From the IMG/VR virus record IMGVR_UViG_2579778631_000021: DNA of 37,649 bases; one strand, 5' to 3'. Below, in pieces: positions 1 to 37,649 of this stretch. A program made the translations under genes and the position numbers. The notes beneath the pieces were generated by a model. That model worked only from the letters and a program-made list of their open reading frames with translations. It was not told the origin of the DNA and did no database searches. Position 1 is the first letter of the stretch. Each line of letters opens with the position of its first letter. Source of the DNA: a virus. Taxonomy: Duplodnaviria > Heunggongvirae > Uroviricota > Caudoviricetes.

Positions 1-1284
1 CTACTTCTTCGCCTCTGCAACCACTTTGCTACCCACGCCGCGGTTATTGTATTCCCACATGCGGTTGTAGTTAGTGTCATTCAGATTGCGCTGTACTTCG
101 TCGTTATCATCAACGCTGCCGGTGTTACCCGCGAATGGACGATTGGAAATCACCGCATCGGCCCACGGTTTCGCCGTGTTAAAACCTTCGTTGATGGCGC
201 TATCACGGATCACCACCTGACCGTTGGTATTGGCATCAACATCCAGCGAGCGGCCCAGTTGCGCCACACCATCACCGGAAGCATTGAAACGGCTGTTTAC
301 GGCGAGGAAACCGTAGTAAATGTTGGACAGCGTAGCCGGTGCAAACACATACGCTTCTTGCTGGGTACGGGAGTTCACCACGCGGAATTCGGTGTTATCG
401 AACACCACTGCGCCGCGACCAGAAACGATATCCACATCTCCTTCGATGTAACTGTTGGTCACCAGCGTACGCGGCTGACGATTCGTTTCCAGACGGTTTT
501 GCACACCGCTGTTGGTGACAAAGAAGGTGTTCTGACGACCGAGAATGTTGACGTTATTGATCTGCACTTTGTCGCCATCAGTACGCAGTGCCACCGCCGG
601 ATGGTTACCCGCATCTACGCTATCGCCCAGCGTGTTTTCGATGGTCAGGTTTTGCAGTTGCAGGCCATTGTTTTGTGACCAGAAGACCGCAGAGCAGAGA
701 ACACCGATACTGTCGCTGCGTTTACTCTGGCAGCTATCGTACATATACCACGCCGGTTTACCTGGCATATATTTGCCGCGCGGGTTGACGTCGTGACGCC
801 AGTCGGCAGGGCTCATGCCACCATCAAGGGAAAGCCCAATCTTCACATCAATCGGTTTTTCACCTGTACCGTACAGAGTAATTCCACCCGGAGCGGCAGG
901 GACATACACCGTTCCCTGATACTCACCAGGCATCACGGCAATATACTGGCGCTTGTTGGTACGCTTGATAATTGCCGCATCTACCGCCGCCTGAATCGTG
1001 GTATGCGTTACACCTTGAGTACCCGCCGGGCCGACAACAAAGTCAGGTTGCGCAGGCAGGGTAATCGGGGAAGGATTCCACGCTGCCGCACCTGGTGTCA
1101 GGGATGCAAAATAGTGTTGAGCATCGAAATTCTGCGCTTCTTTTGCCGACAGAATCGGGCGCGAAGAGGTACCAGGCGCGGTTTGATCAGAAGGACGTTG
1201 ATCGGGCGGTGTTGAGCTACAGGCGGTCAGCGTCACGCCAAAAGCCAATGCCAGCGCCAGACGGGAAACTGAAAATGTGTTCAC
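1..1284 (-). CDS. ybhC: Host outer-membrane lipoprotein YbhC (pectinesterase-like), flanking lambda attB
   Basis: Complete 427-aa ORF with lipoprotein signal peptide (LTAC lipobox); recalled as the host gene on the ybhC side of attB-lambda; immediately followed by att core. Confidence 0.7.
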   Translation of the reverse strand: MNTFSVSRLALALAFGVTLTACSSTPPDQRPSDQTAPGTSSRPILSAKEAQNFDAQHYFASLTPGAAAWNPSPITLPAQPDFVVGPAGTQGVTHTTIQAAVDAAIIKRTNKRQYIAVMPGEYQGTVYVPAAPGGITLYGTGEKPIDVKIGLSLDGGMSPADWRHDVNPRGKYMPGKPAWYMYDSCQSKRSDSIGVLCSAVFWSQNNGLQLQNLTIENTLGDSVDAGNHPAVALRTDGDKVQINNVNILGRQNTFFVTNSGVQNRLETNRQPRTLVTNSYIEGDVDIVSGRGAVVFDNTEFRVVNSRTQQEAYVFAPATLSNIYYGFLAVNSRFNASGDGVAQLGRSLDVDANTNGQVVIRDSAINEGFNTAKPWADAVISNRPFAGNTGSVDDNDEVQRNLNDTNYNRMWEYNNRGVGSKVVAEAKK

Positions 1285-1418: not shown

Positions 1419-2489
1419 TTATTTGATTTCAATTTTGTCCCACTCCCTGCCTCTGTCATCACGATACTGTGATGCCATGGTGTCCGACTTATGCCCGAGA
1501 AGATGTTGAGCAAACTTATCGCTTATCTGCTTCTCATAGAGTCTTGCAGACAAACTGCGCAACTCGTGAAAGGTAGGCGGATCCCCTTCGAAGGAAAGAC
1601 CTGATGCTTTTCGTGCGCGCATAAAATACCTTGATACTGTGCCGGATGAAAGCGGTTCACGACGAGTAGATGCAATTATGGTTTCTCCGCCAAGAATCTC
1701 TTTGCATTTATCAAGTGTTTCCTTCATTGATATCCCAAGAGCATCAACATGCAATGTTGTTGGGATGGCAATTTTTACGCCGGTTTTGCTTTGCTCGACA
1801 TAAAGATAGCCATCTACGATATCAGACCACTTCATTTCGCATAAATCACCAACTCGCTGCCCGGTAACAACAGCCAGTTCCATTGCAAGTCTAAGCCAAC
1901 ATGGTGATGATTCTGCTGCTTGATAAATTTTCAGGTATTCGTCAGCCGTAAGTCTTGATCTCCTTACCTCTGATTTTGCTGCGCGAGTGGCAGCGACCGG
2001 GTTTGTTGTTATATGGCCTTCAGCTATTGCCTCTCGGAATGCATCGCTCAGTGTTGATCTGATTAACTTGGCTGACGCCGCCTTGCCCTCGTCTATGTAT
2101 CCATTGAGCATTGCCGCAATTTCTTTTGTGGTGATGTCTTCAAGTGGAGCATCAGGCAGACCCCTCCTTATTGCTTTAATTTTGCTCATGTAATTTATGA
2201 GTGTCTTCTGCTTGATTCCTCTGCTGGCGAGGATTTTTTCGTAGCGATCAAGCCATGAATGTAACGTAACAGAATTATCACTGTTGATTCTCGCTGTCAG
2301 AGGCTTGTGTTTGTGTCCTGAAAATAACTCAATGTTGGCCTGTATAGCTTCAGTGATTGCGATTCGCCTGTCTCGGCCTAATCCAAACTCTTTACCCGTC
2401 CTTGGGTCCCTGTAGCAGTAATATCCATTGTTTCTTATATAAAGGTTAGGGGGTAAATCCCGGCGCTCATGACTTCGCCTTCTTCCCAT
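1419..2489 (-). CDS. int: Tyrosine integrase, lambda Int type
   Basis: 356-aa ORF; N-terminal arm-binding region and C-terminal catalytic motifs (HELRSL...LGH...Y); sequence recalled as essentially lambda Int; adjacent to attL. Confidence 0.95.
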   Translation of the reverse strand: MGRRRSHERRDLPPNLYIRNNGYYCYRDPRTGKEFGLGRDRRIAITEAIQANIELFSGHKHKPLTARINSDNSVTLHSWLDRYEKILASRGIKQKTLINYMSKIKAIRRGLPDAPLEDITTKEIAAMLNGYIDEGKAASAKLIRSTLSDAFREAIAEGHITTNPVAATRAAKSEVRRSRLTADEYLKIYQAAESSPCWLRLAMELAVVTGQRVGDLCEMKWSDIVDGYLYVEQSKTGVKIAIPTTLHVDALGISMKETLDKCKEILGGETIIASTRREPLSSGTVSRYFMRARKASGLSFEGDPPTFHELRSLSARLYEKQISDKFAQHLLGHKSDTMASQYRDDRGREWDKIEIK

Positions 2490-3509: not shown

Positions 3510-3895
3510 TTTGCCTCCTGCGGCGGTTCTGGTAGCGGCATCCAGTGTGATGGTATCCACGACGCACCAGGTATTACCCACCCATCATTAGCGTCAGGAT
3601 GCCCCGGGATGTAAGTCGCCCATTTCATTCGCCAGTCACCTTTCCTGTCAAACTCCCTGGCAACAAGAACGGCTGTTTTGGTATCCGGCATTCGCTCACT
3701 ACAGCTTATCCAGCCATCCGGAGTTACCGGATAGTTGCCCGACATCTCGTTCAACTTGTAAGTCTGGCTTACAAGTTCGGCTTCCAGCGATGCCAGTGCA
3801 ATCCGTGCCAGTTCCATTTGTTCGCCACGGGTAAGCCCGTTTTCAAGCGGGGATTTAATGAACAATTCGATACGTTCTTTAGTGATAGTGCTCAT
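3506..3895 (-). CDS. DUF551-like phage protein
   Basis: Start MSTITKERIELF with AGGAG SD; C-terminal W-rich segment ending SHWMPLPEPP typical of DUF551. Confidence 0.55.
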   Translation of the reverse strand: MSTITKERIELFIKSPLENGLTRGEQMELARIALASLEAELVSQTYKLNEMSGNYPVTPDGWISCSERMPDTKTAVLVAREFDRKGDWRMKWATYIPGHPDANDGWVIPGASWIPSHWMPLPEPPQEAK

Positions 3896-7947: not shown

Positions 7948-8916
7948 TTAGTAGGTTATTTTTGTTGCGAATACTTCGCCTTTTACGATGGCTGTTATGA
8001 TATTTTTAGCAACATCTTCTGATGCACCAACCTTGATAAGGTCAGCAAGTATTTTGTTATTCACTTCTTTCCGGTGAGCTTTATCCTTTGCTCTACGCTC
8101 TTCTTCGTCCTTGATTCTTTTTTCTTCTGCTATTCTGGCTTGCTCTTTTGCTTCAGCCTCGCGACGGATTCGTTCAGCCTCCTCCTGTGCTTTTCTGCGT
8201 TCTGCTTCAATTGCTGCCTGCTTTTCTCTTTCAGCTCGTTCTGCTGCCTCTTTTGCTTCGCGCTGTGCTCGTTGCTCGGCTTCAATGCGTTCACGCTCTG
8301 CACGTTCTGCTGCGGCCTTAGCTTCTGCTTCTCGCCTTGCTGCTGCTTCAATTTCGGCTTTTGCCTTTGCTTCGGCTTCTGCTCTGGCTTTCTCTTCAGC
8401 TTCTCTTTTTAAGCGTTCTTCATGCTCTCGCTTTTCCTGCTCCGCTTTGAGTCTTGCCTCTTCTCTTTGGCGGTCAAATTCGCGATCCATCAAAATAGCT
8501 ATTTCATGGTCAGACTCAATTTGCTTTGCGAGAGCTTCAGCTTCTGCCTTAGCTTCTTCTTCGGCTTTAATCCGCGCCTGTTCTTCCTCATAATCAGTAA
8601 GAGGCTGGCGCGCCTTGGCTTTCAGCTCATCAAGGCGATCGCGCACTGTCTTGCGGTTGGCATCAATTAGCTTTGGAATTTCCTTCAGTTCAGCAACAAG
8701 GTCTTTGCCAAGACCATCGAGATATGTTTTCGTCTGCGCAACTTTATACGCCAGAGAAGCGATCTCCTTTCTGCCCTTTGCCGTTGTGATATCAGGCACA
8801 AAGGACATAACTTCACGTTCAACCTTTTGAAGGATTTCTTCAATCTGGTCGGCAGACTGAAATACAGTCATTGCATTTGCTTTTTCAATAACAACTAAAT
8901 CTGTTACTTCACTCAT
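7948..8916 (-). CDS. Phage protein with long E/A/K/R-rich coiled-coil low-complexity region
   Basis: 322-aa ORF, strong GGAGGA SD; residues about 110-290 are EAKR repeats; function unknown. Confidence 0.5.
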   Translation of the reverse strand: MSEVTDLVVIEKANAMTVFQSADQIEEILQKVEREVMSFVPDITTAKGRKEIASLAYKVAQTKTYLDGLGKDLVAELKEIPKLIDANRKTVRDRLDELKAKARQPLTDYEEEQARIKAEEEAKAEAEALAKQIESDHEIAILMDREFDRQREEARLKAEQEKREHEERLKREAEEKARAEAEAKAKAEIEAAARREAEAKAAAERAERERIEAEQRAQREAKEAAERAEREKQAAIEAERRKAQEEAERIRREAEAKEQARIAEEKRIKDEEERRAKDKAHRKEVNNKILADLIKVGASEDVAKNIITAIVKGEVFATKITY

Positions 8917-8928
8917 ATATCCTCCGTC

Positions 8929-8956
8929 AAAAAATTGCCCTCACACTGGAGGGCAA
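8929..8956 (-). terminator. Rho-independent terminator on minus strand (tL1-like) upstream of recombination genes
   Basis: 8-bp stem TTGCCCTC/GAGGGCAA, 6-nt loop, followed on minus strand by 6-7 T; abuts SD of 322-aa gene. Confidence 0.5.
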
Positions 8957-9168
8957 AGAAGATTTCCAATAATCAGAACAAGTCGGCTCCTGTTTAGTTA
9001 CGAGCGACATTGCTCAGTGTATTCACTCGTTGGAATGAATACACAGTGCAGTGTTTATTAGTATGCCTGTCTTTTAACCACATCAGGCTCGGTGGTTCTC
9101 GTGTACCCCTACAGCGAGAAATCGGATAAACTCTATTCACCCCTACAGAGAGCAAAAGAGAAACGCCG

Positions 9169-9750
9169 ATGAACAACTCATGGTGGCAGGAACTAATGCA
9201 TTTTTTCCTGCAAGGAATGACACTTAAACAGTTGATTCATATGCTAATCATCCTAATCATATTGATTATTGTTATGCCTGTAAGCGTAAAAGAATGGATA
9301 AACCTGCATAATCCAGAAATCCTTCCTCATTACTGGATGTATTACATCCTGTTGTTTTGCGTTAGCTATGTGCTTAACGGCGTTGTTAATTCCGCTTATC
9401 ACGCTGTGACTGAAAGAATTGAGATATTCGCTGCTCAGAAGCGCAAATCTAAAGAAGAGAAATACGTGCAAGATTTGTTTGATTCGTTAACTCTTGGAGA
9501 AAGAGCGTATTTGGCATTCGCTGTAGCCGCTAATAACCAGCTAAAGACAGAAAAGGGAAGCCCTGAAGCAATCTCATTGCTCGAAAAAGGGCTTCTTATT
9601 CGGGTACCTTCTGCTACTGGATATCCTGAAATCGACCGTTTTGTTATCCCGGAACGCTATAGAAATGAGTGCTACATTAGGTTTGCTGGGAAGAAAGACA
9701 GTCTTATGGATGAACTTATCGCTCAGGATAAGCATGGCAAAAACAAGTAA
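9169..9750 (+). CDS. SieB-like superinfection exclusion membrane protein
   Basis: 193-aa ORF on opposite strand to pL operon, AT-rich, N-terminal hydrophobic segments; position and size as for lambdoid sieB; recalled similarity only. Confidence 0.45.
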   Translation: MNNSWWQELMHFFLQGMTLKQLIHMLIILIILIIVMPVSVKEWINLHNPEILPHYWMYYILLFCVSYVLNGVVNSAYHAVTERIEIFAAQKRKSKEEKYVQDLFDSLTLGERAYLAFAVAANNQLKTEKGSPEAISLLEKGLLIRVPSATGYPEIDRFVIPERYRNECYIRFAGKKDSLMDELIAQDKHGKNK

Positions 9751-9766
9751 TTAGCAAATTAATTTA

Positions 9767-10039
9767 TCATCTCGCCGTCAGTTGTTTTGATTTCCGGTAG
9801 CCTGCCGCGTAAATGGCTACGTTTGGCAGGCAAATACTTCCACTGCATTCATCTGCCTTCTTGCAGCGAAGGCTTCCGAGTGATGCTGCTTTGTCTGCTC
9901 TGACGCAACCAGAGAGCTTTAGCGCAATTTTTCGCGCCAGTCGCTGTTCTTGCATTGCCTGCTCACGTTGAGCCTGTCTGCGTGCTCTGCGGCGATTTCT
10001 GGCGTTATCGTCAGCCAGATATGTAATGACTACTGCCAT
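9767..10039 (-). CDS. N-like transcription antiterminator
   Basis: First gene downstream of pL and nutL; arginine-rich motif NARNRRRARRQAQREQ near N-terminus; GGAGG SD. Confidence 0.6.
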   Translation of the reverse strand: MAVVITYLADDNARNRRRARRQAQREQAMQEQRLARKIALKLSGCVRADKAASLGSLRCKKADECSGSICLPNVAIYAAGYRKSKQLTAR

Positions 10040-10792: not shown

Positions 10793-11509
10793 TCAAACCA
10801 GCCTTAGTTTTGTCTCAATTGCAACGCCTATAATCTTGCAGTTTCCATTGATTGGCACGAGAGGCCATGCAGGATTAAGTCCCTTGAGGTATTTATTTCC
10901 GCCGTCGATTATCAGCTTCTTGAATGTTGCTTCGTTAGAGTCAGAAAGTTTTGCTATGACCAAGCTGCCGTTGATCGCCTCCCTTCCGGTATCGAAAAGA
11001 ACGAATGTTCCCTCTGGAATGCTTAACCCAACCGGTGCCGTCATTGAATCACCTTCCACTTTAAGCCAGAACGCATTACCTTGAATATGCGCGTCAGACT
11101 CAAGCCAAACATCTATGTCTTTAATGGTGTATGGTTCGCATGCTTCACACCACGAGCCAGCCTGGATACTGCTTAACACCGGATACCTCTTTCCTGCTCT
11201 GTATTCCCCTGCATACCTTACGTTGGCATCGCTCTTAAGGCTTTCTGCCTGTTCTGCAACCTTGGCAGCAATTGACTGGCTAAAATCAGCAATTGAGACT
11301 TGCAACAATCGTGCAAAACCAGATGCAACCTCAACGTTTAGCGCGTTTCTGCCATTAAGATAATGCCCTACCGCTCCTTGGGTGATACCCAGTTCATCAG
11401 CGATTGAGTATTGGGTTATTCCCAATTCTTTCTTTTTTGACTCATACAAAGCCTTAAGACGCTTAGCGTCTTCGAGCTGTTCTGTCGTCAGTGATTTTTT
11501 ATTTTCCAT
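10793..11509 (-). CDS. cI: CI repressor (HTH N-terminus, S24 LexA-like autocleavage C-terminus)
   Basis: 238 aa; N-terminus MENKKSLTTEQLEDAKRLKALYESKKKELGITQ resembles lambda cI; C-terminal GDSM and FKKL catalytic Ser/Lys motifs. Confidence 0.9.
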   Translation of the reverse strand: MENKKSLTTEQLEDAKRLKALYESKKKELGITQYSIADELGITQGAVGHYLNGRNALNVEVASGFARLLQVSIADFSQSIAAKVAEQAESLKSDANVRYAGEYRAGKRYPVLSSIQAGSWCEACEPYTIKDIDVWLESDAHIQGNAFWLKVEGDSMTAPVGLSIPEGTFVLFDTGREAINGSLVIAKLSDSNEATFKKLIIDGGNKYLKGLNPAWPLVPINGNCKIIGVAIETKLRLV

Positions 11510-11544
11510 AGCTTAATTCTAATAGCTAAGGTACTTAAACTAAA

Positions 11545-11586
11545 AATACCCTAAGTATTGATTGCTTTGAATACCTGTAGTATTCT
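11545..11586. promoter_or_regulatory. OR operators with pR (and probable pRM on opposite strand)
   Basis: Inverted repeats AATACCCTAAGTATT (11545-11559) and GAATACCTGTAGTATTC (11569-11585); pR -35 TTGATT (11558-11563), -10 TATTCT (11581-11586); minus-strand TAGAAT close to cI ATG suggests near-leaderless pRM. Confidence 0.6.
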
Positions 11587-11615
11587 TTGTTCATGGTTAA
11601 TAACGGAGAGTGCAT

Positions 11616-11810
11616 ATGATTCGAATGACACTTGCCGATTACGCCAAAATCCATGGACAGGCTAAAGCAGCCAGTGACTTTGGTGTAATCCAGTGCGCTA
11701 TCAGCAAGGCCATTCTGGCAGGCCGTAACATCATGGTTACGGTAAAGCCTGATGGCAGTGTGATTGGAGAGGAAGTTCGTCCTTTCCCAAGCAACAAGAA
11801 AAACAAATAG
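11616..11810 (+). CDS. cro: Cro repressor
   Basis: [62 protein letters not shown] strongly resembles lambda Cro; GGAGAG SD. Confidence 0.85.
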
Positions 11811-11816
11811 TAACAC

Positions 11817-11859
11817 CGCTCTTTAACAGTCATGGTCATCATTCCCGCCGAAATGCGGG
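11817..11859 (+). promoter_or_regulatory. nutR (boxA CGCTCTTTAACA + boxB CCCGC-CGAAAT-GCGGG), followed by tR1-like hairpin
   Basis: boxA 11817-11828, boxB 11844-11859; downstream hairpin GCGCAT-ACGTTG-ATGCGC then T-rich tract. Confidence 0.6.
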
Positions 11860-11918
11860 AATACAACGCGCATACGTTGATGCGCATAACTTCTTATTTG
11901 TTAAGGAAATACTTACAT

Positions 11919-12197
11919 ATGGAACTTACAAGTACTCGCAAGAAAGCGAATGCAATTACAAGCAACATCCTGAATCGAATTGCTGTACGTGGTCAGCGAA
12001 AGGTTGCTGATGCATTAGGGATCAATGAATCGCAAATTTCGCGATGGAAAGACAGCTTTATCCCAAAGATGGCCATGCTTCTGGCTGTACTGGAGTGGGG
12101 TGTTGAAGACGAGGAGTTGGCGGAACTGGCTAAGAAAGTAGCCAGAATGCTGACAAAAGAAAAAGCCCCGAAGAACGGCGAATTCTTCGAGGCCTGA
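11919..12197 (+). CDS. cII: CII transcriptional activator
   Basis: 92 aa; KSQISRWKDSFIPKMAMLLAVLEWGV motif nearly as in lambda CII. Confidence 0.85.
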   Translation: MELTSTRKKANAITSNILNRIAVRGQRKVADALGINESQISRWKDSFIPKMAMLLAVLEWGVEDEELAELAKKVARMLTKEKAPKNGEFFEA

Positions 12198-12231
12198 TGT
12201 AGAAAGACTGGATCAATCCACAGGAGTAATT

Positions 12232-12876
12232 ATGACATACGAAAATGACAAATTCCAGGTTCTGAAGAGCATGAAGGTGCCAGATGATTTTAAATCAAAT
12301 GGCTTTGTTTATGTGCTTTCGAATGAGTGCATGCCAGGAATTTATAAGATTGGGATGACTAAGCATTCACCAGAAGTTAGGGCTAAAGAAATTTCAGCCT
12401 CTACTGGCGTTCCTAAGCCATTTAAGGTGATAGCAGCCTTTCATTCAAATAATCCCGCATCAGATGAAAAACTCATTCATAAAGCCTTTGCAAAAGAGAG
12501 GCTTAGTGATAATCGAGAGTTTTTCAAGCTTGAAGATAATGATCTTTCTGAATCTCTAAATGAAATAAGGGCGCTGGTTGGCCCTGAAAGAAATGGCGAG
12601 ACGGCAGAATACGCAATTTACGACTCATTCATTTCTTTTCGCCATGAAAATGAGCTTGATCTTAATGAGGAGCTTATAGAGCAAGGTCTGGGTAGTGTAG
12701 TTGGTCATCTTCCTGCGGTGAAAAATTTCCTTATTCGCGCCGGAATTGCTTACGCGAAGCAACTGATAAGCAAATATAACTCATCGATAGTTATTAATAC
12801 AGATGGCAGTGTGGTGATGGTTAAGTCTCTTGAAGCCCAATGCTTTGATGCGGAGGTTGGAAATGAGCCTGGCTGA
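12232..12876 (+). CDS. T5orf172 (MUG113/GIY-YIG-like) domain protein, moron between cII and O
   Basis: N-terminal GFVYVLSNECMPGIYKIGMTKHSPEVRAKEISASTGVPKPFKV matches the T5orf172 signature; CAGGAG SD; AT-rich codon usage. Confidence 0.6.
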   Translation: MTYENDKFQVLKSMKVPDDFKSNGFVYVLSNECMPGIYKIGMTKHSPEVRAKEISASTGVPKPFKVIAAFHSNNPASDEKLIHKAFAKERLSDNREFFKLEDNDLSESLNEIRALVGPERNGETAEYAIYDSFISFRHENELDLNEELIEQGLGSVVGHLPAVKNFLIRAGIAYAKQLISKYNSSIVINTDGSVVMVKSLEAQCFDAEVGNEPG

Positions 12877-32717: not shown

Positions 32718-35111
32718 ATGGCTAATTACCGTGATTTGTTAGAGCAGGCTGGCGCACGTTACGGTGTGCCAGAAGGGTTGATGACTGCACTGGGTGCCAA
32801 GGAGTCTTCTTACAACCCTGCCGCAGTAAGCTCCGCCGGGGCTGTAGGATTGACTCAGGTCATGCCTGGGACATGGCGTGATATGGGTTATACCGATGAG
32901 CAAATGCAAAACCCCGAATATCAGGCTGACGCTGGCGCGCGCTATCTGGCAAAGATGTACCAGCAGTTTGGTAACTGGCGTGACGCTCTTCAGGCTTATC
33001 ACGACGGTCCCGGCAACGTTATGAAGGCAAAGCGTGGTGAATATACTCCAGGACCTGAAGGCCGCGGTTACGTTGATGATCGCTTTGCTCAATGGGCGGG
33101 TGACCCGGTGACAGACTCAACAGTCGAACAGCGCGCCACCTCTGCAAAGGTACATCCTCAGCAAGACCCTAACAACCCGTTTGCACAACTGGAAGCACAG
33201 TCATCCGAACAAGTATCGGCATCAGGCGTGCAGTCAGACCCAAATAATCCATTTGCTCAGATTGAGCAGCAGGCAGACAGTCAGCAGCCACCTCAACCCG
33301 TAAGTTCTGTCACACCGAAACCTGTTCAGCAGCAAGGCGGAATAATGTCTGACCTTGGTAATGGACTTGCTGAAACCGGGCGCGGCTTACTACAGGCAGG
33401 AATCAACGTAGCGAACATACCTGCTGAACTCACTGATGCTGTAACAAGCGCGGCGGCTTGGGCTGGCGGTAAACTCGGTATTGGCGATGGTACATATCAA
33501 CCAGCACCACGAGTAACAACGCAGGGATTAGAGCAGGACTTTGGCCTTCAGCAAGGCGCGCTGACTCCACAAACGACAGAGGGAAGGGTATTTGCTGAAG
33601 CATTGCCTTACCTCACTCCTGCTGGCGTTGAGAGAACGGCAACACAGGCACCAACACTTGCTGGTCGAATTGCTCATGGGGCAACACGACTTCTCGCAGA
33701 AAACGCAGTTGGATCACTTGCTGCAAATAGTGCGAAAGATGATGCGGAAGCACTCGCCACCGATTTAGGCGTTGGTGTGTTGGCTGGCGGTGCTATTAAC
33801 GCTGCCGGACGTGGATTAGGTGCTGCTTATCGTGGCGTTCGTGGTGCTATTGCGCCAGAAGCGCAGCAGGCTATCAGATTTGCAGAGCGTGAAGGAGTTC
33901 CTCTGCACACCACAGACCTGTTACAGCCTACTTCCCGCGTCGGGAAAATGGCGCAGACTACAGCAGAAAATATCCCCCTGGCTGGCACAAGCGGAATGAG
34001 AGCAACGCAACAGGAAGCGAGAAGTCAGTTGGTGCAGAGATTTGCTGATAAATTCGGCGAGTACGATCCGGCAGTTGTTATTGACAGCCTTAAAGCGAAA
34101 ACATCAGGAATTCGGCGTGCCGCCGGTAATCGACTGGAGCAGGTTCAGAATGCTATGGCGGGAATAAACATTCAGCCTGCAAGAGCAATTCAGCAGATTG
34201 ATACAGAAATATCTAACCTGCAGAAGCTTGGTAAGGTTGCTGATAACGAGACTATTTCAAAACTTCAGTCCTATCGTGATGAGCTTGTTCGCAATGCTGG
34301 TCCTGATGGCCCGGTAAATCTGGATTTGAAGCAATTAAGCGATCTGCGCAGCCAGTTCAGAATGGACGTGAAGGGGGAGCGACCAGTGTTACCAAACCGT
34401 TCCGATGCTGCCATTCAGCGCGTTTACAAGGCGATGACAGACGATATCAATGGTGCCATTGGTCAGAATCTTGGCAACGATACTCTCCGTAAATATCAGC
34501 AGGCCAATGCCGTCTACGCTGACGAAGCGGCGAAACTAAAGAATACCAGGCTGAAGAATGTTCTCATGAAAGGCGACCTGACGCCGGAAGTTGTCAACAA
34601 CATGCTATTCAGCAAGAACAAATCGGAAATTAAGACGCTGTATAACTCAGTTGGTCGTGTTGGCAGGGCGCAAATGCGCAATGGCATCATTGGAAAGGCG
34701 ATGGAGAAATCAGGTGGTTCCCCTGACCAGTTCCTTCGACAGCTTAACATCCTGCAAAACCAGACTGGCATCACATTTAAAGGTCAGGATGCTGCTTATC
34801 TGAAAGGATTGAAAAACTACCTTCAATCCACGCAGCAGGCTGCAAAAGCGGCAGTAACAACACCAACAGGGCAGCAAACCATCCCGTTCATTATCGGATA
34901 TGGGACAGCAATGAACCCTGCGACAACTGGCGCAGCAGTAAGCTACGGACTTCTGACTCGCGCCTATGAGAGCGAGCCATTCAGAAATGCAATGCTCCGA
35001 ATGGCAAACACCCCACGCGGATCAACAGCGTTTGAGAAAGCCATGCAGCAGGCACAAAAGGCCATTAACGCCCTGACTCAGGGGGCTAAGTCTGATGCGT
35101 TGTCAGAATAG
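32718..35111 (+). CDS. Ejection protein at gp16 position with N-terminal soluble lytic transglycosylase (SLT) domain
   Basis: 797 aa; N-terminal KESSYNPAAVSSAGAVGLTQVMPGTW...AYHDGPG matches SLT-domain motifs; remainder is Ala/Gly/Gln-rich. Confidence 0.7.
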   Translation: MANYRDLLEQAGARYGVPEGLMTALGAKESSYNPAAVSSAGAVGLTQVMPGTWRDMGYTDEQMQNPEYQADAGARYLAKMYQQFGNWRDALQAYHDGPGNVMKAKRGEYTPGPEGRGYVDDRFAQWAGDPVTDSTVEQRATSAKVHPQQDPNNPFAQLEAQSSEQVSASGVQSDPNNPFAQIEQQADSQQPPQPVSSVTPKPVQQQGGIMSDLGNGLAETGRGLLQAGINVANIPAELTDAVTSAAAWAGGKLGIGDGTYQPAPRVTTQGLEQDFGLQQGALTPQTTEGRVFAEALPYLTPAGVERTATQAPTLAGRIAHGATRLLAENAVGSLAANSAKDDAEALATDLGVGVLAGGAINAAGRGLGAAYRGVRGAIAPEAQQAIRFAEREGVPLHTTDLLQPTSRVGKMAQTTAENIPLAGTSGMRATQQEARSQLVQRFADKFGEYDPAVVIDSLKAKTSGIRRAAGNRLEQVQNAMAGINIQPARAIQQIDTEISNLQKLGKVADNETISKLQSYRDELVRNAGPDGPVNLDLKQLSDLRSQFRMDVKGERPVLPNRSDAAIQRVYKAMTDDINGAIGQNLGNDTLRKYQQANAVYADEAAKLKNTRLKNVLMKGDLTPEVVNNMLFSKNKSEIKTLYNSVGRVGRAQMRNGIIGKAMEKSGGSPDQFLRQLNILQNQTGITFKGQDAAYLKGLKNYLQSTQQAAKAAVTTPTGQQTIPFIIGYGTAMNPATTGAAVSYGLLTRAYESEPFRNAMLRMANTPRGSTAFEKAMQQAQKAINALTQGAKSDALSE

Positions 35112-35200
35112 CTTCGCAAACACCAGGAACGTGCAAAAACCAAATATGTAGAACGCAATATTCAGCATATCTCTTTGCATATATCCTCCGTAACTGATAG

Positions 35201-35461
35201 TTAGCTGCTGTCTTTTTTATATAGCTCTTTGAGCGTATCAAAGACAATTTTCTTAACCATATCAGATTGTTGTTCTGCCATACGCTCTGCATCGTCAATG
35301 TAAACTGATGCAGAGCTTTGTTTAGCCAATGATTCTTCAATCGCTGCAATTATCTCTGAGTTCAGCGACCTGTTATTCATCTTCGCGCGCTGTTTAATTT
35401 TCGCGTGGAGTTCATGCGGAAGTCTCAAGTGAAACTGCGCCTCGTCGTATTTGCTGTACAT
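35201..35461 (-). CDS. mnt: Mnt-like ribbon-helix-helix repressor
   Basis: 86 aa from MYSKYDEAQFHLRLPHELHAKIKQRAKMNNRSLNSEII...; resembles P22 Mnt (RHH N-terminus, C-terminal DAERMAEQQSDMVKKIVFDTLKELYKK). Confidence 0.75.
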   Translation of the reverse strand: MYSKYDEAQFHLRLPHELHAKIKQRAKMNNRSLNSEIIAAIEESLAKQSSASVYIDDAERMAEQQSDMVKKIVFDTLKELYKKDSS

Positions 35462-35582
35462 CCTTGATGCCTCACCAGTTGGGTGGAATGGCATCGTAAC
35501 CTACTGGATAAATACTCAATAGTACCATTTCGGTATGTAATCATATCATGGTTGCATCATATCATTCGTCTGGAGCAATGAA

Positions 35583-37649
35583 ATGTCAGATATCACCGCA
35601 AATGTTGTGGTAAGCATGCCTTCGCAACTCTTCACTATGGCGCGTTCTTTTAAAGCCGTAGCCAATGGCAAAATTTATATCGGTAAAATTGACACTGACC
35701 CTGTAAATTCTGAAAACCAGATTCAGGTTTATGTGGAGAACGAAGATGGCTCTCACGTTCCTGTATCGCAACCAATCATCATTAACGCTGCTGGTTACCC
35801 GGTATATAACGGACAGATTGCCAAATTCGTTACCGTGCAAGGCCATTCAATTGCTGTTTATGATGCGTATGGTGCGCAGCAGTTCTATTTTCCTAATGTG
35901 CTGAAGTATGACCCTGACCAACTAAGACAGGAGTTAGATGGTGTTGGTGGGGTTAATTTAGTAAATGGGGCATTACATGGTGCCATGGATTCAGATCCAA
36001 ATGTTGGTTTTAAAATCACCACATCCTCAGGTGAGATTTACGAATATGCTCCGGGAATTACAGGTCTTGCCGATGGGTTTTCGGTATCAGCATCACAGTT
36101 ATATTTAACAAGGAATGGCCTATCTTATAAATACTCTTCACCTCATAACACACTGGTTTGGCCATCTCAGTATATCGATACGAGTGCTGATGCGAAATAT
36201 TCAATTGAATCTATTATGGCGCACGGATTGAATGTGGACCTTAACGGAACTACAGTTAAAGCCAGCACCATTAATATTACGAAAGATTTGATTAATGGTG
36301 AAATTGTTGCTATCGGAGATGAAGGATCATTTATAACAGTAAACTCATGCATGCTTAACAATATTAAAGTTAACTGCAATATGATGGCAATTAGAAGGCC
36401 TGTTCATATCAAAACAGGGGCTGTTAATCCAGTAGTTAAGAATGTTGATGTTTTTGATAGTAATGGTTCTCAACTAACTTATGGTATTTTCATAGATGCA
36501 AATTCTGTATTGAATTTTGTCGTTGATAACATATCAATACATAATATTACCACCATTGGAAATGGTATTCAGGGTGATGTAATTGGGCCATGTCGAGGGA
36601 TTCTTGTAGGAACGGCACTTGATCCAGTACCATCAAATGATGATGAGGTATCAAGTGGAGTTATAAGTAACGTAAGGATTTACAAGCTAAACCCTTGGGA
36701 AGATGCTGATGGTGTTGTTATTCAGATTTACAACTCATCATCAAATATGCTCAGCGGGAAGAAAATAAAGGTTGATGGCGTTTATACTTACAATGCACTT
36801 AAGCGAGCAGTCAAAGTTCAGGCCAATGATGTTACAGTAACAAATGTATTTGCGGTTTGTGATGACGCCTCAGCAACTAACCCTATGTATAGTTGTGTTA
36901 GTGTTTATGGTAGTTCCTGTGTTGTTCGTGGTGTTAGTGGGCGAGGAAGGATTGGCAATGGTGTTGATTCATCTGATGGGTTCAATACTATCAGTGATGT
37001 TTATCTTAAGACGACAGCAACCTATGAGCTAAGCGCAGGTCTACAGATAACTTCCGGGCAGGTAAACGCGAATAACATTCACTCTGAAGGATCAAGATAC
37101 ATAGTCGCAATTCGGGCAGTTAATAACACAACACCGTATGTAAATATTAATGGCATATATGGGCAAGGTTATGACGGGGCGATTTTGTTAGAAATCAGAT
37201 ACGGATTTAATATTGGTAATGTTTACTTAAGTGATATTTCAGTATCAAGTTCAAATCCCACAAGGTCTTCATTCTTCTTTGATATATTATCAGGTGGAAG
37301 TATATCTCTGATCAGCGTGTCAGACGTCAAGAGAATCAGTCAGGCATTTAACGGAGCAGATATAAACATTTCTGGTGGGGTTGCAAAAGCTATTGTTAAA
37401 AATTCAGTTTTTGAGAGTGGTTCGTCAAGCGTTGGTGTATCAATGACAACTGGTACTTTAGTTGCATCAAATATATCAGCACAAAGTAAATCTTATGCTG
37501 TCAACGCTGTACAAACCACAAATTCACTTATAAATAACATTGATGGAATCGTTAGGGTTGATAGCACAACCAACAGTAATGTCGGCCTTTACAGAGGGAT
37601 TACCTCTGTTGGGACTAACACAGGACTGAAAACTGTTTTCTATCAATAA
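35583..37649 (+). CDS. Tailspike protein (P22-type head-binding domain + divergent receptor-binding beta-helix)
   Basis: First ~110 aa ([42 protein letters not shown]...VLKYDPDQ) match the conserved P22 gp9 N-terminal domain; remaining ~575 aa is a Ser/Asn/Val/Gly-rich repeat-like domain with lower GC. Confidence 0.9.

Follow-up and report, generated by a model that had tools for sequence, protein, structure and literature searches.

Modular exchange of receptor-binding domains (RBDs) between tailspikes is textbook knowledge, and the phenomenon itself is not new. The P22-like tailspikes P22 gp9, Sf6 gp14, HK620 gp9 and CUS-3 EndoN have, like the spike examined here, a PF09008 anchor, linker and beta-helix build, and the genes of P22-like tailspikes follow, as here, the ejection-protein genes and immI. 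In Lederberg- and Uetakevirus prophages anchor and RBD are separable, and RBDs cross genera (Virol J 2023, PMC10408124). Moreover, the RBD type of a prophage predicts the O serogroup of its host, and the receptor-binding protein (RBP) gene frequently has a modification gene after it (PMC10408124). Here we describe the tailspike gene in a stretch of E. coli prophage DNA of 37,649 nt (IMG/VR record IMGVR_UViG_2579778631_000021, hereafter the window), where it forms a single intact ORF (Table 1). We consider that this is a chimeric spike whose RBD was imported together with an acetyltransferase gene as one cassette, and that the two would act as putative O76 depolymerase and as protection of the lysogen; to this account, taken jointly, we give a probability of roughly 0.7.

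The initial annotation had read the first ∼110 residues as a P22-type head-binding domain, and this is borne out. Residues 1–113 match the Pfam profile PF09008 (Head_binding) over profile positions 1–113 of 113 (E = 1.4e-65, 219 bits, cut-off 24), and the anchor is 95.7% identical to that of CUS-3 and 94% to that of HK620, with 86–96% identity across the Sf6, HK620 and CUS-3 types. The domain has a conserved helix at its C-terminal end (10 residues), and the N-terminal ∼118 residues plug the spike into the tail. Upstream of the tailspike lie the P22_gp7, Inj_translocase and Phage_P22_gp16 genes and Mnt, and the ORFs of the window follow this order; both PF09008 and the gene position thus place the protein among the P22-like tailspikes (Lederbergvirus gp9 type). 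An identical 688-aa protein (P0001) is present in public assemblies, more than 100 of them, and a 99% identical copy of the gene, under the annotation 'phage head-binding domain-containing protein', is found in three complete E. coli genomes.

Likeness to the characterised P22-like spikes ends with the anchor. PDB sequence matches (Sf6 7sg7, P22 2xc1 and 1lkt, and the HK620 type) are confined to residues 1–119, and no similarity to the RBD was found in the catalytic domains of P22, Sf6, HK620 and CUS-3 (phmmer stops at 119, tblastn covers residues 1–117), in agreement with the earlier remark that this part is unlike the P22 endorhamnosidase. At the DNA level, P22-type tailspike homology, present in 1142 of 5426 complete E. 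coli genomes, stops at gene nt 353–356 (megablast), and homology to an Enterobacter cassette begins at gene nt 366. This second block is shared with a prophage of Enterobacter hormaechei GCA_019840865.1; it is uninterrupted over 2259 bp at 87.6% identity and ends exactly at the start codon of an acetyltransferase gene. The Enterobacter prophage is of a different podovirus type and, outside the block, has no sequence in common with the window's prophage. Because the P22-type homology ends where the uninterrupted cross-backbone block starts, the horizontal swap of the host-specificity domain that had been suggested is supported, and the shared block shows it directly. The divergent, AT-rich domain had been placed from position 35,900 onwards; its divergence and AT-richness hold, but its boundary is nearer the junction given in Table 1. 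The tailspike is a chimera of a P22-type (Lederbergvirus-like) anchor and an imported RBD, and the transferred unit is larger than the RBD alone, with the convergent acetyltransferase gene included. The motif GGV(N/D)LVNGA adjoins the junction and is common to another RBD type (MFDS1001074) and to Ackermannviridae-type spikes, and members of the RBD family are found fused to three anchors, namely Head_binding, Phage_T7_tail and Tail_spike_N.

Table 1. Coordinates of the tailspike gene and its parts in the window
Feature	Position	Strand	Basis
Tailspike gene, 688 aa	35583..37649	+	ORF list; last gene of the window, stop codon ends at the window's final base
Head-binding (virion anchor) domain, aa 1–118	35583..35936	+	Pfam PF09008, PDB and CUS-3/HK620 matches
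Recombination junction, codons 119–122 (D-G-V-G)	35937..35948	+	Ends of megablast homology and base-by-base view
Receptor-binding, putative depolymerase domain, aa ∼122–688	35948..37649	+	Window's share of the 2.26-kb low-GC cassette
Acidic motif E373-D374-x-D376 (PWEDADGVV), candidate	36699..36710	+	Invariant in the 26-member alignment
Basic motif K407-R408-x-x-K411-x-Q413 (KRAVKVQ), candidate	36801..36821	+	Invariant in alignment A2

The receptor is likely to be the acidic, GlcA-containing O-antigen of E. coli O76, because all three RBD carriers among the 5426 complete E. coli genomes belong to the five genomes with O76 wzx/wzy. The hypergeometric p for this overlap is 3.8e-10, or 4e-8 if only the 1142 genomes that carry a P22-type spike are counted, for three genomes of one species with all prophages at argW, so that the carriers are not fully independent. 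One of the three, JNE132847, is an STEC O76:H7 (PMC10790564), whereas the O76 strains FORC_042 and MB98 are free of the prophage. The O76 O-antigen is a linear acidic tetrasaccharide of three GalNAc, one of them 3-O-acetylated, and GlcA (PMC10304059). By criterion ii of PMC10408124 (at least 90% of hosts in one serogroup, at least two hosts), the hosts here are O76 in 3/3 cases, which is a statement of association. The RBD might instead recognise another glycan (K-antigen/group 4 capsule, colanic acid, ECA) or several O types, in which case the O76 overlap would reflect vertical inheritance of one argW prophage in related lineages. The small number of carriers, three in all, each at argW and with chromosomal flanks 99.7–99.95% identical, is in keeping with such a history, as are identical spikes at further integration sites, the 87–90% identical RBD in Enterobacter, and the report of RBP subtypes that span many serogroups (PMC10408124). 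We nevertheless regard this explanation as unlikely, since 3/3 carriers out of 5426 genomes fall inside a five-genome serogroup, and since the three O76 prophages differ by 2–2.4% and in their upstream mosaics, where the chromosomal flanks differ by 0.05–0.3%, a pattern that speaks against a single clonal prophage of recent date. Moreover, the spikes of P22-like and epsilon15-like prophages generally follow the host O-antigen (PMC10408124).

The cassette partner is a convergent 183-aa hexapeptide O-acetyltransferase, WP_000625801.1, whose stop codon abuts that of the tailspike; its gene lies outside the window, starting one base past the window end. The protein belongs to the hexapeptide-repeat (LbH) group (Pfam Hexapep PF00132, 47.2 bits, cut-off 27), and against the NCBIfam cut-offs it scores 79/150 bits for EpsC, 63/211 for CysE and 39/195 for WcaB, all below. 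Hence it is related to EpsC/WcaB/CysE and a member of none of them, and we infer its substrate from context. Homologues are located in chromosomal O-antigen/EPS clusters. The O76 gene cluster has an acyltransferase of its own, and the phage enzyme is not a copy of it, as the two share hexapeptide-repeat similarity only (E = 6e-4); nor is it a homologue of NeuO, to which only the hexapeptide-repeat region aligns. Promoter and terminator scans around the joint between spike and acetyltransferase genes gave background level only.

Wherever a related temperate phage has sequence downstream of the spike, an acetyltransferase gene adjoins it. This gene abuts the spike stop in eleven loci (L001–L008, L010, L015 and L017) and in 4/4 IMG/VR contigs having downstream DNA; in one siphovirus-type contig the same convergent position is occupied instead by an Acyl_transf_3/SGNH (membrane OafA-type) acyltransferase. 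The cassette has been exchanged among P22-like, epsilon15/T7-anchor-type and other prophages in E. coli, Enterobacter and a host of ∼40% GC, and a Massilia prophage has a 61%-identical acetyltransferase together with a 26%-identical beta-helix in which the motifs are kept; on virulent Ackermannviridae spikes, the RBD occurs without acetyltransferase. The enzyme could still be an unrelated 'moron' in the usual slot for lysogenic conversion, with no functional tie to the RBD, as P22-like prophages of any spike type often have gtr, oac or neuO between the tailspike and int/att and the acetyltransferase family is huge, with ∼5000 homologues, and mainly chromosomal. This is improbable given that the cross-backbone homology spans both genes and nothing more, and that co-occurrence is strict: of 5426 E. 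coli genomes, both genes are found in the identical set of 3, and they stand together in every temperate context studied as well as in the betaproteobacterial prophage. In addition, the divergence of the two proteins is correlated, the acetyltransferases being 91–95% identical where the RBDs are 87–90% identical, and 75% where they are 64%.

If spike tip and enzyme do travel as one functional cassette, as we prefer, the lysogen's cytoplasmic acetyltransferase would O-acetylate the same polysaccharide that the spike attacks. This modification would guard the lysogen from superinfection and keep its debris from trapping progeny, a protection modelled on that by NeuO, Oac and Gtr in CUS-3, Sf6 and P22, respectively. 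A further possibility, which we put forward tentatively, is that the RBD and the ∼185-aa EpsC-like acetyltransferase are an old co-inherited pair for attack plus self-protection, one mobile unit found across podo-, sipho- and myovirus backbones and from Massilia (Betaproteobacteria) to Enterobacterales, with the acetyltransferase masking the exact sugar position that the active site needs. Were this true, the pair would amount to a toxin–immunity-like module for surface glycans, and the type of acetyltransferase would predict the chemistry of the spike.

The RBD had been called beta-helix-like, and the predicted structure (monomer model, pLDDT 88) is a right-handed beta-helix of ∼565 residues, which agrees with the right-handed parallel, pectin-lyase-like fold of tailspike depolymerases. 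By sequence, no relative of the RBD was found in Pfam, PHROG, NCBIfam or PDB: a search of the complete PDB sequence set with a 26-member family profile (E ≤ 10) yielded nothing beyond noise (TBP and MexA), Pfam on the 26 members (E ≤ 1) gave N-terminal anchors and one marginal Pect-lyase_RHGA_epim match (E = 0.031, one member), and two scans of one-genome-per-species contigs gave no relative, consistent with rarity. Foldseek returned generic beta-helix matches at 8–16% identity, with E from ∼1e-3 (PDB) to ∼1e-6 (BFVD), and the top structural neighbours of the model are phage depolymerases. In the 26-sequence alignment the invariant residues are E373, D374, D376, K407, R408, K411 and Q413, with no invariant His or Tyr. 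The acidic motif is kept in members down to ∼19% identity and reads DADGIV in the 26%-identical Massilia protein, in which the basic motif is conserved as KRGVKI. We take E373/D374/D376 as candidate catalytic or metal-binding carboxylates and K407/R408/K411/Q413 as candidate carboxylate-binding or catalytic residues; the basic motif, ∼33 residues downstream of the acidic one, would by its spacing and secondary structure probably lie on the next beta-helix rung. The EDxD and KRxxKxQ motifs would together form an active site recognising uronate, and the beta-helix would bind and cleave the surface polysaccharide, bringing the virion to the outer membrane. Cleavage may be hydrolytic (GH28-like) or by beta-elimination (lyase), with neither favoured. 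That the beta-helix is instead a non-catalytic adhesin, which binds only, or modifies the glycan without cleavage, seems very improbable in view of phage depolymerases as top structural neighbours and of an invariant carboxylate/basic cluster kept down to 19–26% identity, a pattern typical of active sites.

Composition sets the RBD apart from the rest of the window. GC is 0.49–0.53 in the virion genes, 0.432 in the head-binding part and 0.381 in the RBD part, and GC3 in the same order is 0.45–0.64, 0.424 and 0.277. The lowest-GC 1702-bp stretch of the whole window (mean GC 0.480, sd 0.031) is 35948–37649 (GC 0.380), and 0 of 3388 sliding windows outside the tailspike are as low, the next lowest being 0.418. 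Synonymous codon usage of the RBD differs from that of the pooled virion genes (summed chi2 208, df 39, p = 5e-25), and its residues are rich in S (12.1%), V (11.2%), G (10.2%), N (9.5%) and I (9.3%). Thus the lower GC, the distinct codon usage and the Ser/Asn/Val/Gly-rich character noted in the initial annotation were all recovered, and GC is not uniform across the gene. The low-GC zone extends past the domain border, with GC of 0.38–0.39 in the mnt region (35100–35400) and 0.43 in the head-binding part. An explanation of the low GC by the Ser/Asn/Ile/Val-rich residues of a beta-helix, or by selection on the gene, with no foreign origin, could draw on the RBD's unusual residue composition and its GC1 of 0.449, well below other virion genes (GC2, 0.418, is inside their range), and on GC below 0.45 in mnt DNA and the early region, but it has very little left in its favour, being refuted in the main by the codon data, as the steepest fall is at synonymous third positions and AT3 per amino acid is up in nearly every family, and by the cross-backbone block, whose GC is ∼0.37 in both backbones (0.51 here, 0.55–0.57 in the Enterobacter prophage) with sharp homology borders.

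The window's tailspike is a fresh instance of well-known module swapping. What is new is that the recombination joint is mapped exactly, to codons 119–122, and that the transferred unit is a two-gene block of spike tip and acetyltransferase, a pairing found repeatedly in different phage families and bacterial classes. Such a cassette offers a clean system for studying the co-transfer of a receptor-degrading enzyme and a host modification that blocks it. For the RBD family, O76 is a first concrete receptor candidate that can be tested. Among STEC this serogroup is a minor one; it has been a cause of HUS, and its isolation is difficult (PMC10790564). An O76-specific spike, if confirmed as such, could be a capture or typing reagent.

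Among deposited phage genomes, the most similar RBD is that of gp168 of the Agtrevirus Gloob, a Shigella boydii phage (50.7% identity over residues 135–686, 80% of the protein). The best match of the RBD is thus to an uncharacterised spike, and not a high identity to a characterised one. By the criterion of at least 30% identity and at least 60% coverage (PMC10408124) the two are of the same RBP subtype. Gloob differs in being a virulent 159-kb myovirus, where gp168 has a Tail_spike_N-type anchor, is one of four spikes and has no acetyltransferase partner, and the paper mentioning this phage contains no receptor data for its spikes. The Klebsiella K1 lyase (7w1c/9k4a), the coliphage K5 lyase KflA (2x3h) and GH28/PL6/AlgE-type enzymes have only 11–15% sequence identity to the RBD. 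In the K1 lyase, Y311 is the base, H373 the acid and R397 the neutraliser at the groove (PMC8822698), and this Tyr311/His373/Arg397 triad has no counterpart among the invariant residues here, as judged from the sequence alignment. The RBP subtypes of PMC10408124 are like the present case in their modular RBD exchange; O76 is missing from the list of 14 assigned serogroups, and we found in that paper no description of an RBD and an acetyltransferase being transferred together as one DNA block. The nearest parallel for the pair is the CUS-3/NeuO module, with which the three E. coli genomes share the order tailspike, hexapeptide O-acetyltransferase, int and argW. CUS-3 lies at argW, whereas the window's prophage is integrated at the lambda att site beside ybhC. 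CUS-3 EndoN is a sialidase beta-propeller, whereas the RBD here is of another fold and family; the acetyltransferase here is EpsC/CysE-like and convergent, not co-directional as is NeuO, and a heptanucleotide phase-variation repeat is not annotated at it. In logic, by analogy, the two systems would nevertheless be alike, each combining a spike against an acidic polysaccharide with an O-acetylating prophage enzyme, as proposed here.

The window is a chromosomal segment that runs from ybhC into a P22-like prophage, with the gene order ybhC, integrase, early genes, virion genes, ejection proteins, Mnt and tailspike, and because the integrase beside ybhC is of the lambda type, this prophage occupies the lambda attachment site. 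By its anchor and genomic position the tailspike is a member of the P22-like family. The initial annotation had proposed a P22-type head-binding N-terminus, and the Pfam domain Head_binding indeed matched aa 1-113 (E 1.4e-65). The solved structures that matched (Sf6 gp14, P22 gp9 and fragments of their N-domains) all did so within aa 1-119 only, and a tblastn search of 50,697 phage records showed that CUS-3, HK620, Sf6 and many others share 86-96% identity over aa 1-117 only. Since the matches to these structures and phages end by aa 119, the receptor-binding domain (RBD, aa ~122-688) is unlike the P22 endorhamnosidase, as had been suspected, and the protein lies outside the P22, Sf6, HK620 and CUS-3 catalytic families.

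Coordinates of the features (window positions unless a locus is named) and values listed for the structural neighbours of the RBD model
Feature	Position	Strand	Value	Remark
ybhC (host gene, window start)	1-1284	-		Pectinesterase match; nearly all E. coli carry it at 99% identity
Lambda-type integrase	1419-2489			adjoins ybhC
Mnt repressor, Arc/Mnt-type	35201-35494	-
Tailspike gene	35583-37649	+		single intact ORF, 688 aa; window's last base is that of the stop codon
183-aa hexapeptide O-acetyltransferase	L001 10068-10619; L004 8068-8619; others			convergent; zero intergenic bases to spike stop
Klebsiella K1 lyases 9k4a / 7w1c			28
Cyanophage Pam1 spike			27
K5 lyase			27
AlgE4 epimerase			26
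PL6 lyases			23-24
HK620 spike			23
GH28 polygalacturonases			22

By megablast, the first ~355 nt of the gene are present in 1,142 of 5,426 complete E. coli genomes, and the complete gene in only three (K99B, KD602 and JNE132847; 98.9-99.4% identity). P22-type homology stops at gene nt 353-356. A blastn comparison of an E. coli prophage (L004) with an Enterobacter prophage (L007) showed that the two have a single block in common, 2,259 bp long and 87.6% identical. This block runs from gene nt 366 (codon 122) exactly to the start codon of the acetyltransferase gene, and its GC content is 0.37 in both hosts, against backbones of 0.51 and 0.55-0.57. Taken together, these two limits place the joint at codons 119-122 (window ~35938-35948). 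Directly 3′ of the LRxxL helix is the motif GGV(N/D)LVNGA (window 35946-35972; 3861-3889 in comparison locus L023; also in the sediment-metagenome contig L013), which is common to the present RBD, an RBD of another type from E. coli MFDS1001074 and Ackermannviridae-type spikes, and which may be a common recombination joint of anchors and RBDs. In MFDS1001074, gtr-type genes come after the RBD.

RBD copies of 87-90% identity, including one in Enterobacter hormaechei, are carried on proteins of 780-787 aa whose N-terminus is of the T7-tail-fibre/epsilon15 type, and copies of 50-64% identity on proteins bearing an Ackermannviridae-type Tail_spike_N domain. The best deposited phage match was gp168 of Gloob (50.7% identity over residues 135-686), one of the four spikes of this virulent Agtrevirus of Shigella boydii. 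The RBD belongs to an uncharacterised beta-helix family that Agtrevirus and epsilon15/T7-anchor-type spikes also contain. The family is small: of 1.84 billion cluster representatives, 33 matched at E<=1e-3, and 11 of these reached E<=1e-30; one-genome-per-species contigs gave no match, and IMG/VR contributed five near-identical copies.

The RBD is also distinct in composition. In the virion genes, GC is 0.49-0.53 and GC3 0.45-0.64; the corresponding values are 0.432 and 0.424 for the head-binding part of the spike, and 0.381 and 0.277 for the remainder. Positions 35948-37649 (GC 0.380) form the lowest 1702-bp stretch of the window; the 3388 sliding windows outside the gene were all higher, with a minimum of 0.418 (window mean 0.480, sd 0.031). 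Compared with the virion genes as a pooled set, synonymous codon usage was different (summed chi2 208, df 39, p 5e-25), with A/T-ending codons over-represented for almost all amino acids, and the residues include S 12.1, V 11.2, G 10.2, N 9.5 and I 9.3%. The fall in GC is already under way in the mnt region, so that there is no step exactly at the domain border. Thus the lower GC, different codon usage and Ser/Asn/Val/Gly-rich make-up claimed for this domain were all recovered; the AT-rich zone placed at 35900-37649 does have low GC, but the domain border is at the joint rather than at 35900. The proposed horizontal swap of the host-specificity domain is directly demonstrated by the block common to L004 and L007, and the same RBD also occurs on different anchors. 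Overall, the GC, codon-usage, anchor and shared-block evidence upholds both the observation and its interpretation.

AlphaFold2 modelling of residues 110-688, with 12 homologues, gave pLDDT 88.4 and pTM 0.85, and predicted a disordered linker at aa 110-142 of the full-length protein (residues 1-33 of the model) followed by an unbroken stack of beta rungs to the C-terminus, in line with the beta-helix-like fold expected for this domain. Foldseek matches to the model were weak and generic, and the RBD family profile matched no PDB sequence. In full-length numbering, G335, E373, D374, D376, K407, R408, K411, Q413, M435 and G455 were invariant in 26 members, down to ~19% identity. They include an acidic EDxD motif and, about 33 residues downstream, a basic KRxxKxQ motif, judged from spacing and predicted secondary structure to lie one rung later. 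The pair fits a candidate active site that would grip a uronate carboxylate. GH28 hydrolases use a GDD/RIK logic and metal-assisted lyases a carboxylate-plus-Lys/Arg logic, and we take the pair to resemble both. The K1 lyase, by comparison, has a Tyr/His/Arg triad (PMC8822698), which the invariant residues do not reproduce. As a rough split, we put a hydrolase at about 45%, with a lyase nearly as likely and a non-cleaving domain unlikely.

The prophages carrying the same spike in the three complete genomes are at the argW site with IntS, and that of one further assembly is beside torT; with the lambda site, this makes at least three integration modules among the prophages that carry the spike cassette. 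Several observations concern these surroundings. The immI region of the window (35201-35582) has a lone Arc/Mnt-type repressor without arc or ant, and a 166-aa HNH_3/AP2 endonuclease gene, which lies between mnt and the spike in assemblies with an identical spike (L004 5086-6000), is replaced here by an 88-bp gap. In the gp16-type ejection protein (32718-35111, 797 aa), an SLT lytic-transglycosylase domain at the N-terminus (PF01464, E 3e-25) is fused to the P22 gp16 domain. The JNE132847 gene at this position is shorter (1845 bp) and, unlike that of KD602, is annotated as 'DNA transfer protein' with no mention of a lytic transglycosylase, so that the virion module is mosaic at a second point. 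In the early-left operon, a 322-aa Ala/Glu/Lys/Arg-rich coiled-coil protein (7948-8916, minus strand), whose counterpart RefSeq labels 'cell envelope biogenesis protein TolA', is the source of an extreme AT skew (-0.60 at 8001-8500). The K99B prophage (L001 563-5715) is decayed upstream of the spike (IS3, IS100, a truncated DNA-transfer gene and BREX/helicase fragments), and its spike, acetyltransferase and int are all intact.

A receptor candidate came from the carriers. JNE132847 is a STEC from a HUS case whose O76:H7 type was confirmed by serology (PMC10790564), and its O-locus has the O76 wzx/wzy and an acyltransferase. O76 wzx/wzy occur in only five of the 5,426 genomes, and these five include every one of the three spike carriers (hypergeometric p 3.8e-10; 4e-8 within the 1,142 genomes having any P22-type spike). 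The spike-to-int segments of the three prophages are 2.0-2.4% apart and their upstream modules are unlike, whereas the adjacent chromosome is only 0.05-0.3% apart, which argues against one recent clonal prophage. PMC10304059, citing Perepelov 2013, describes O76 as a linear tetrasaccharide made up of a GlcA, two GalNAc and a GalNAc3Ac (~70% acetylated). Such a glycan is acidic and naturally open to O-acetylation, as would suit a spike with conserved basic residues, structural neighbours that act on uronates and an acetyltransferase partner. Beta-elimination would need a 4-substituted GlcA, and the GlcA of O76 is presumably so substituted. By the rule with which PMC10408124 assigns a serogroup to an RBP subtype, three O76 carriers out of three would count as an O76 assignment; O76 is absent from the 14 serogroups given in that paper. 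No study of an O76 tailspike emerged from a full-text literature search. By association, the O76 O-antigen is thus a candidate receptor of the RBD.

In all three complete genomes the spike stop abuts, with no gap, the stop of a convergent 552-bp gene annotated 'serine O-acetyltransferase' (WP_000625801.1), followed by IntS and tRNA-Arg (argW). The layout recurs in assemblies whose identical spike sits elsewhere in the chromosome, in two metagenomic relatives as well as the Enterobacter prophage, in a contig retrieved by its acetyltransferase, and in all four IMG/VR contigs having downstream DNA. The window is cut exactly at the spike stop, so that the partner gene falls outside the data; we infer its presence at this locus. 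One assembly (GCA_965254175.1, contig CBDGCG010000001.1, 347740-401040; L004 and L005) holds the identical spike and acetyltransferase twice, 39.2 kb apart, with a lambda-type integrase and early genes after the first copy and torT/torR/torCA after the second, and looks like a tandem double lysogen.

RBD and acetyltransferase were found in exactly the same three of 5,426 E. coli genomes, and their divergence is correlated: RBD identities of 87-90% pair with acetyltransferase identities of 91-95%, and 64% with 75%, the latter in a cassette of GC 0.32 on a ~0.40-GC backbone. In the siphovirus-type contig L013, with a GpJ-like gene upstream, a 61% identical RBD is followed by a convergent 615-aa Acyl_transf_3+SGNH (OafA-type) acyltransferase (8130-9977) and then by a second Acyl_transf_3 gene (11430-12497); thus a non-homologous acetyltransferase class takes the same position. 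A Massilia (Betaproteobacteria) prophage has a convergent, 61% identical acetyltransferase beside a 676-aa beta-helix protein only 26% identical to the RBD, in which GxxRGI, DADG(V/I)VxQ, KRxVK and YSxxSVYG are kept. The virulent RBD carriers (Gloob and a 128-kb contig) are without the acetyltransferase. The acetyltransferase family is very large (5,181 matches at E<=1e-20), and its closest curated relatives, EpsC, CysE, NeuD and WcaB, are all under the cut-off. Three homologues were sampled, and all map within or next to polysaccharide-synthesis genes of the chromosome; the one with 72% identity belongs to an O-antigen-type cluster adjoining a SpoU-methylase/cysE/gpsA/secB locus, which we take to resemble the Providencia/Proteus O-antigen site. 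Co-occurrence, correlated divergence, the Massilia pairing and these contexts support a putative surface-glycan O-acetyltransferase that would have been captured and co-transferred with the spike tip. The novelty is incremental: the RBD subtype is new and has a candidate serogroup, the anchor/RBD joint has been mapped precisely, and there is evidence of spike tip and acetyltransferase moving together. This pairing parallels NeuO of CUS-3, Oac of Sf6 and Gtr of P22, and its genomic logic matches that of the CUS-3 EndoN/NeuO module.
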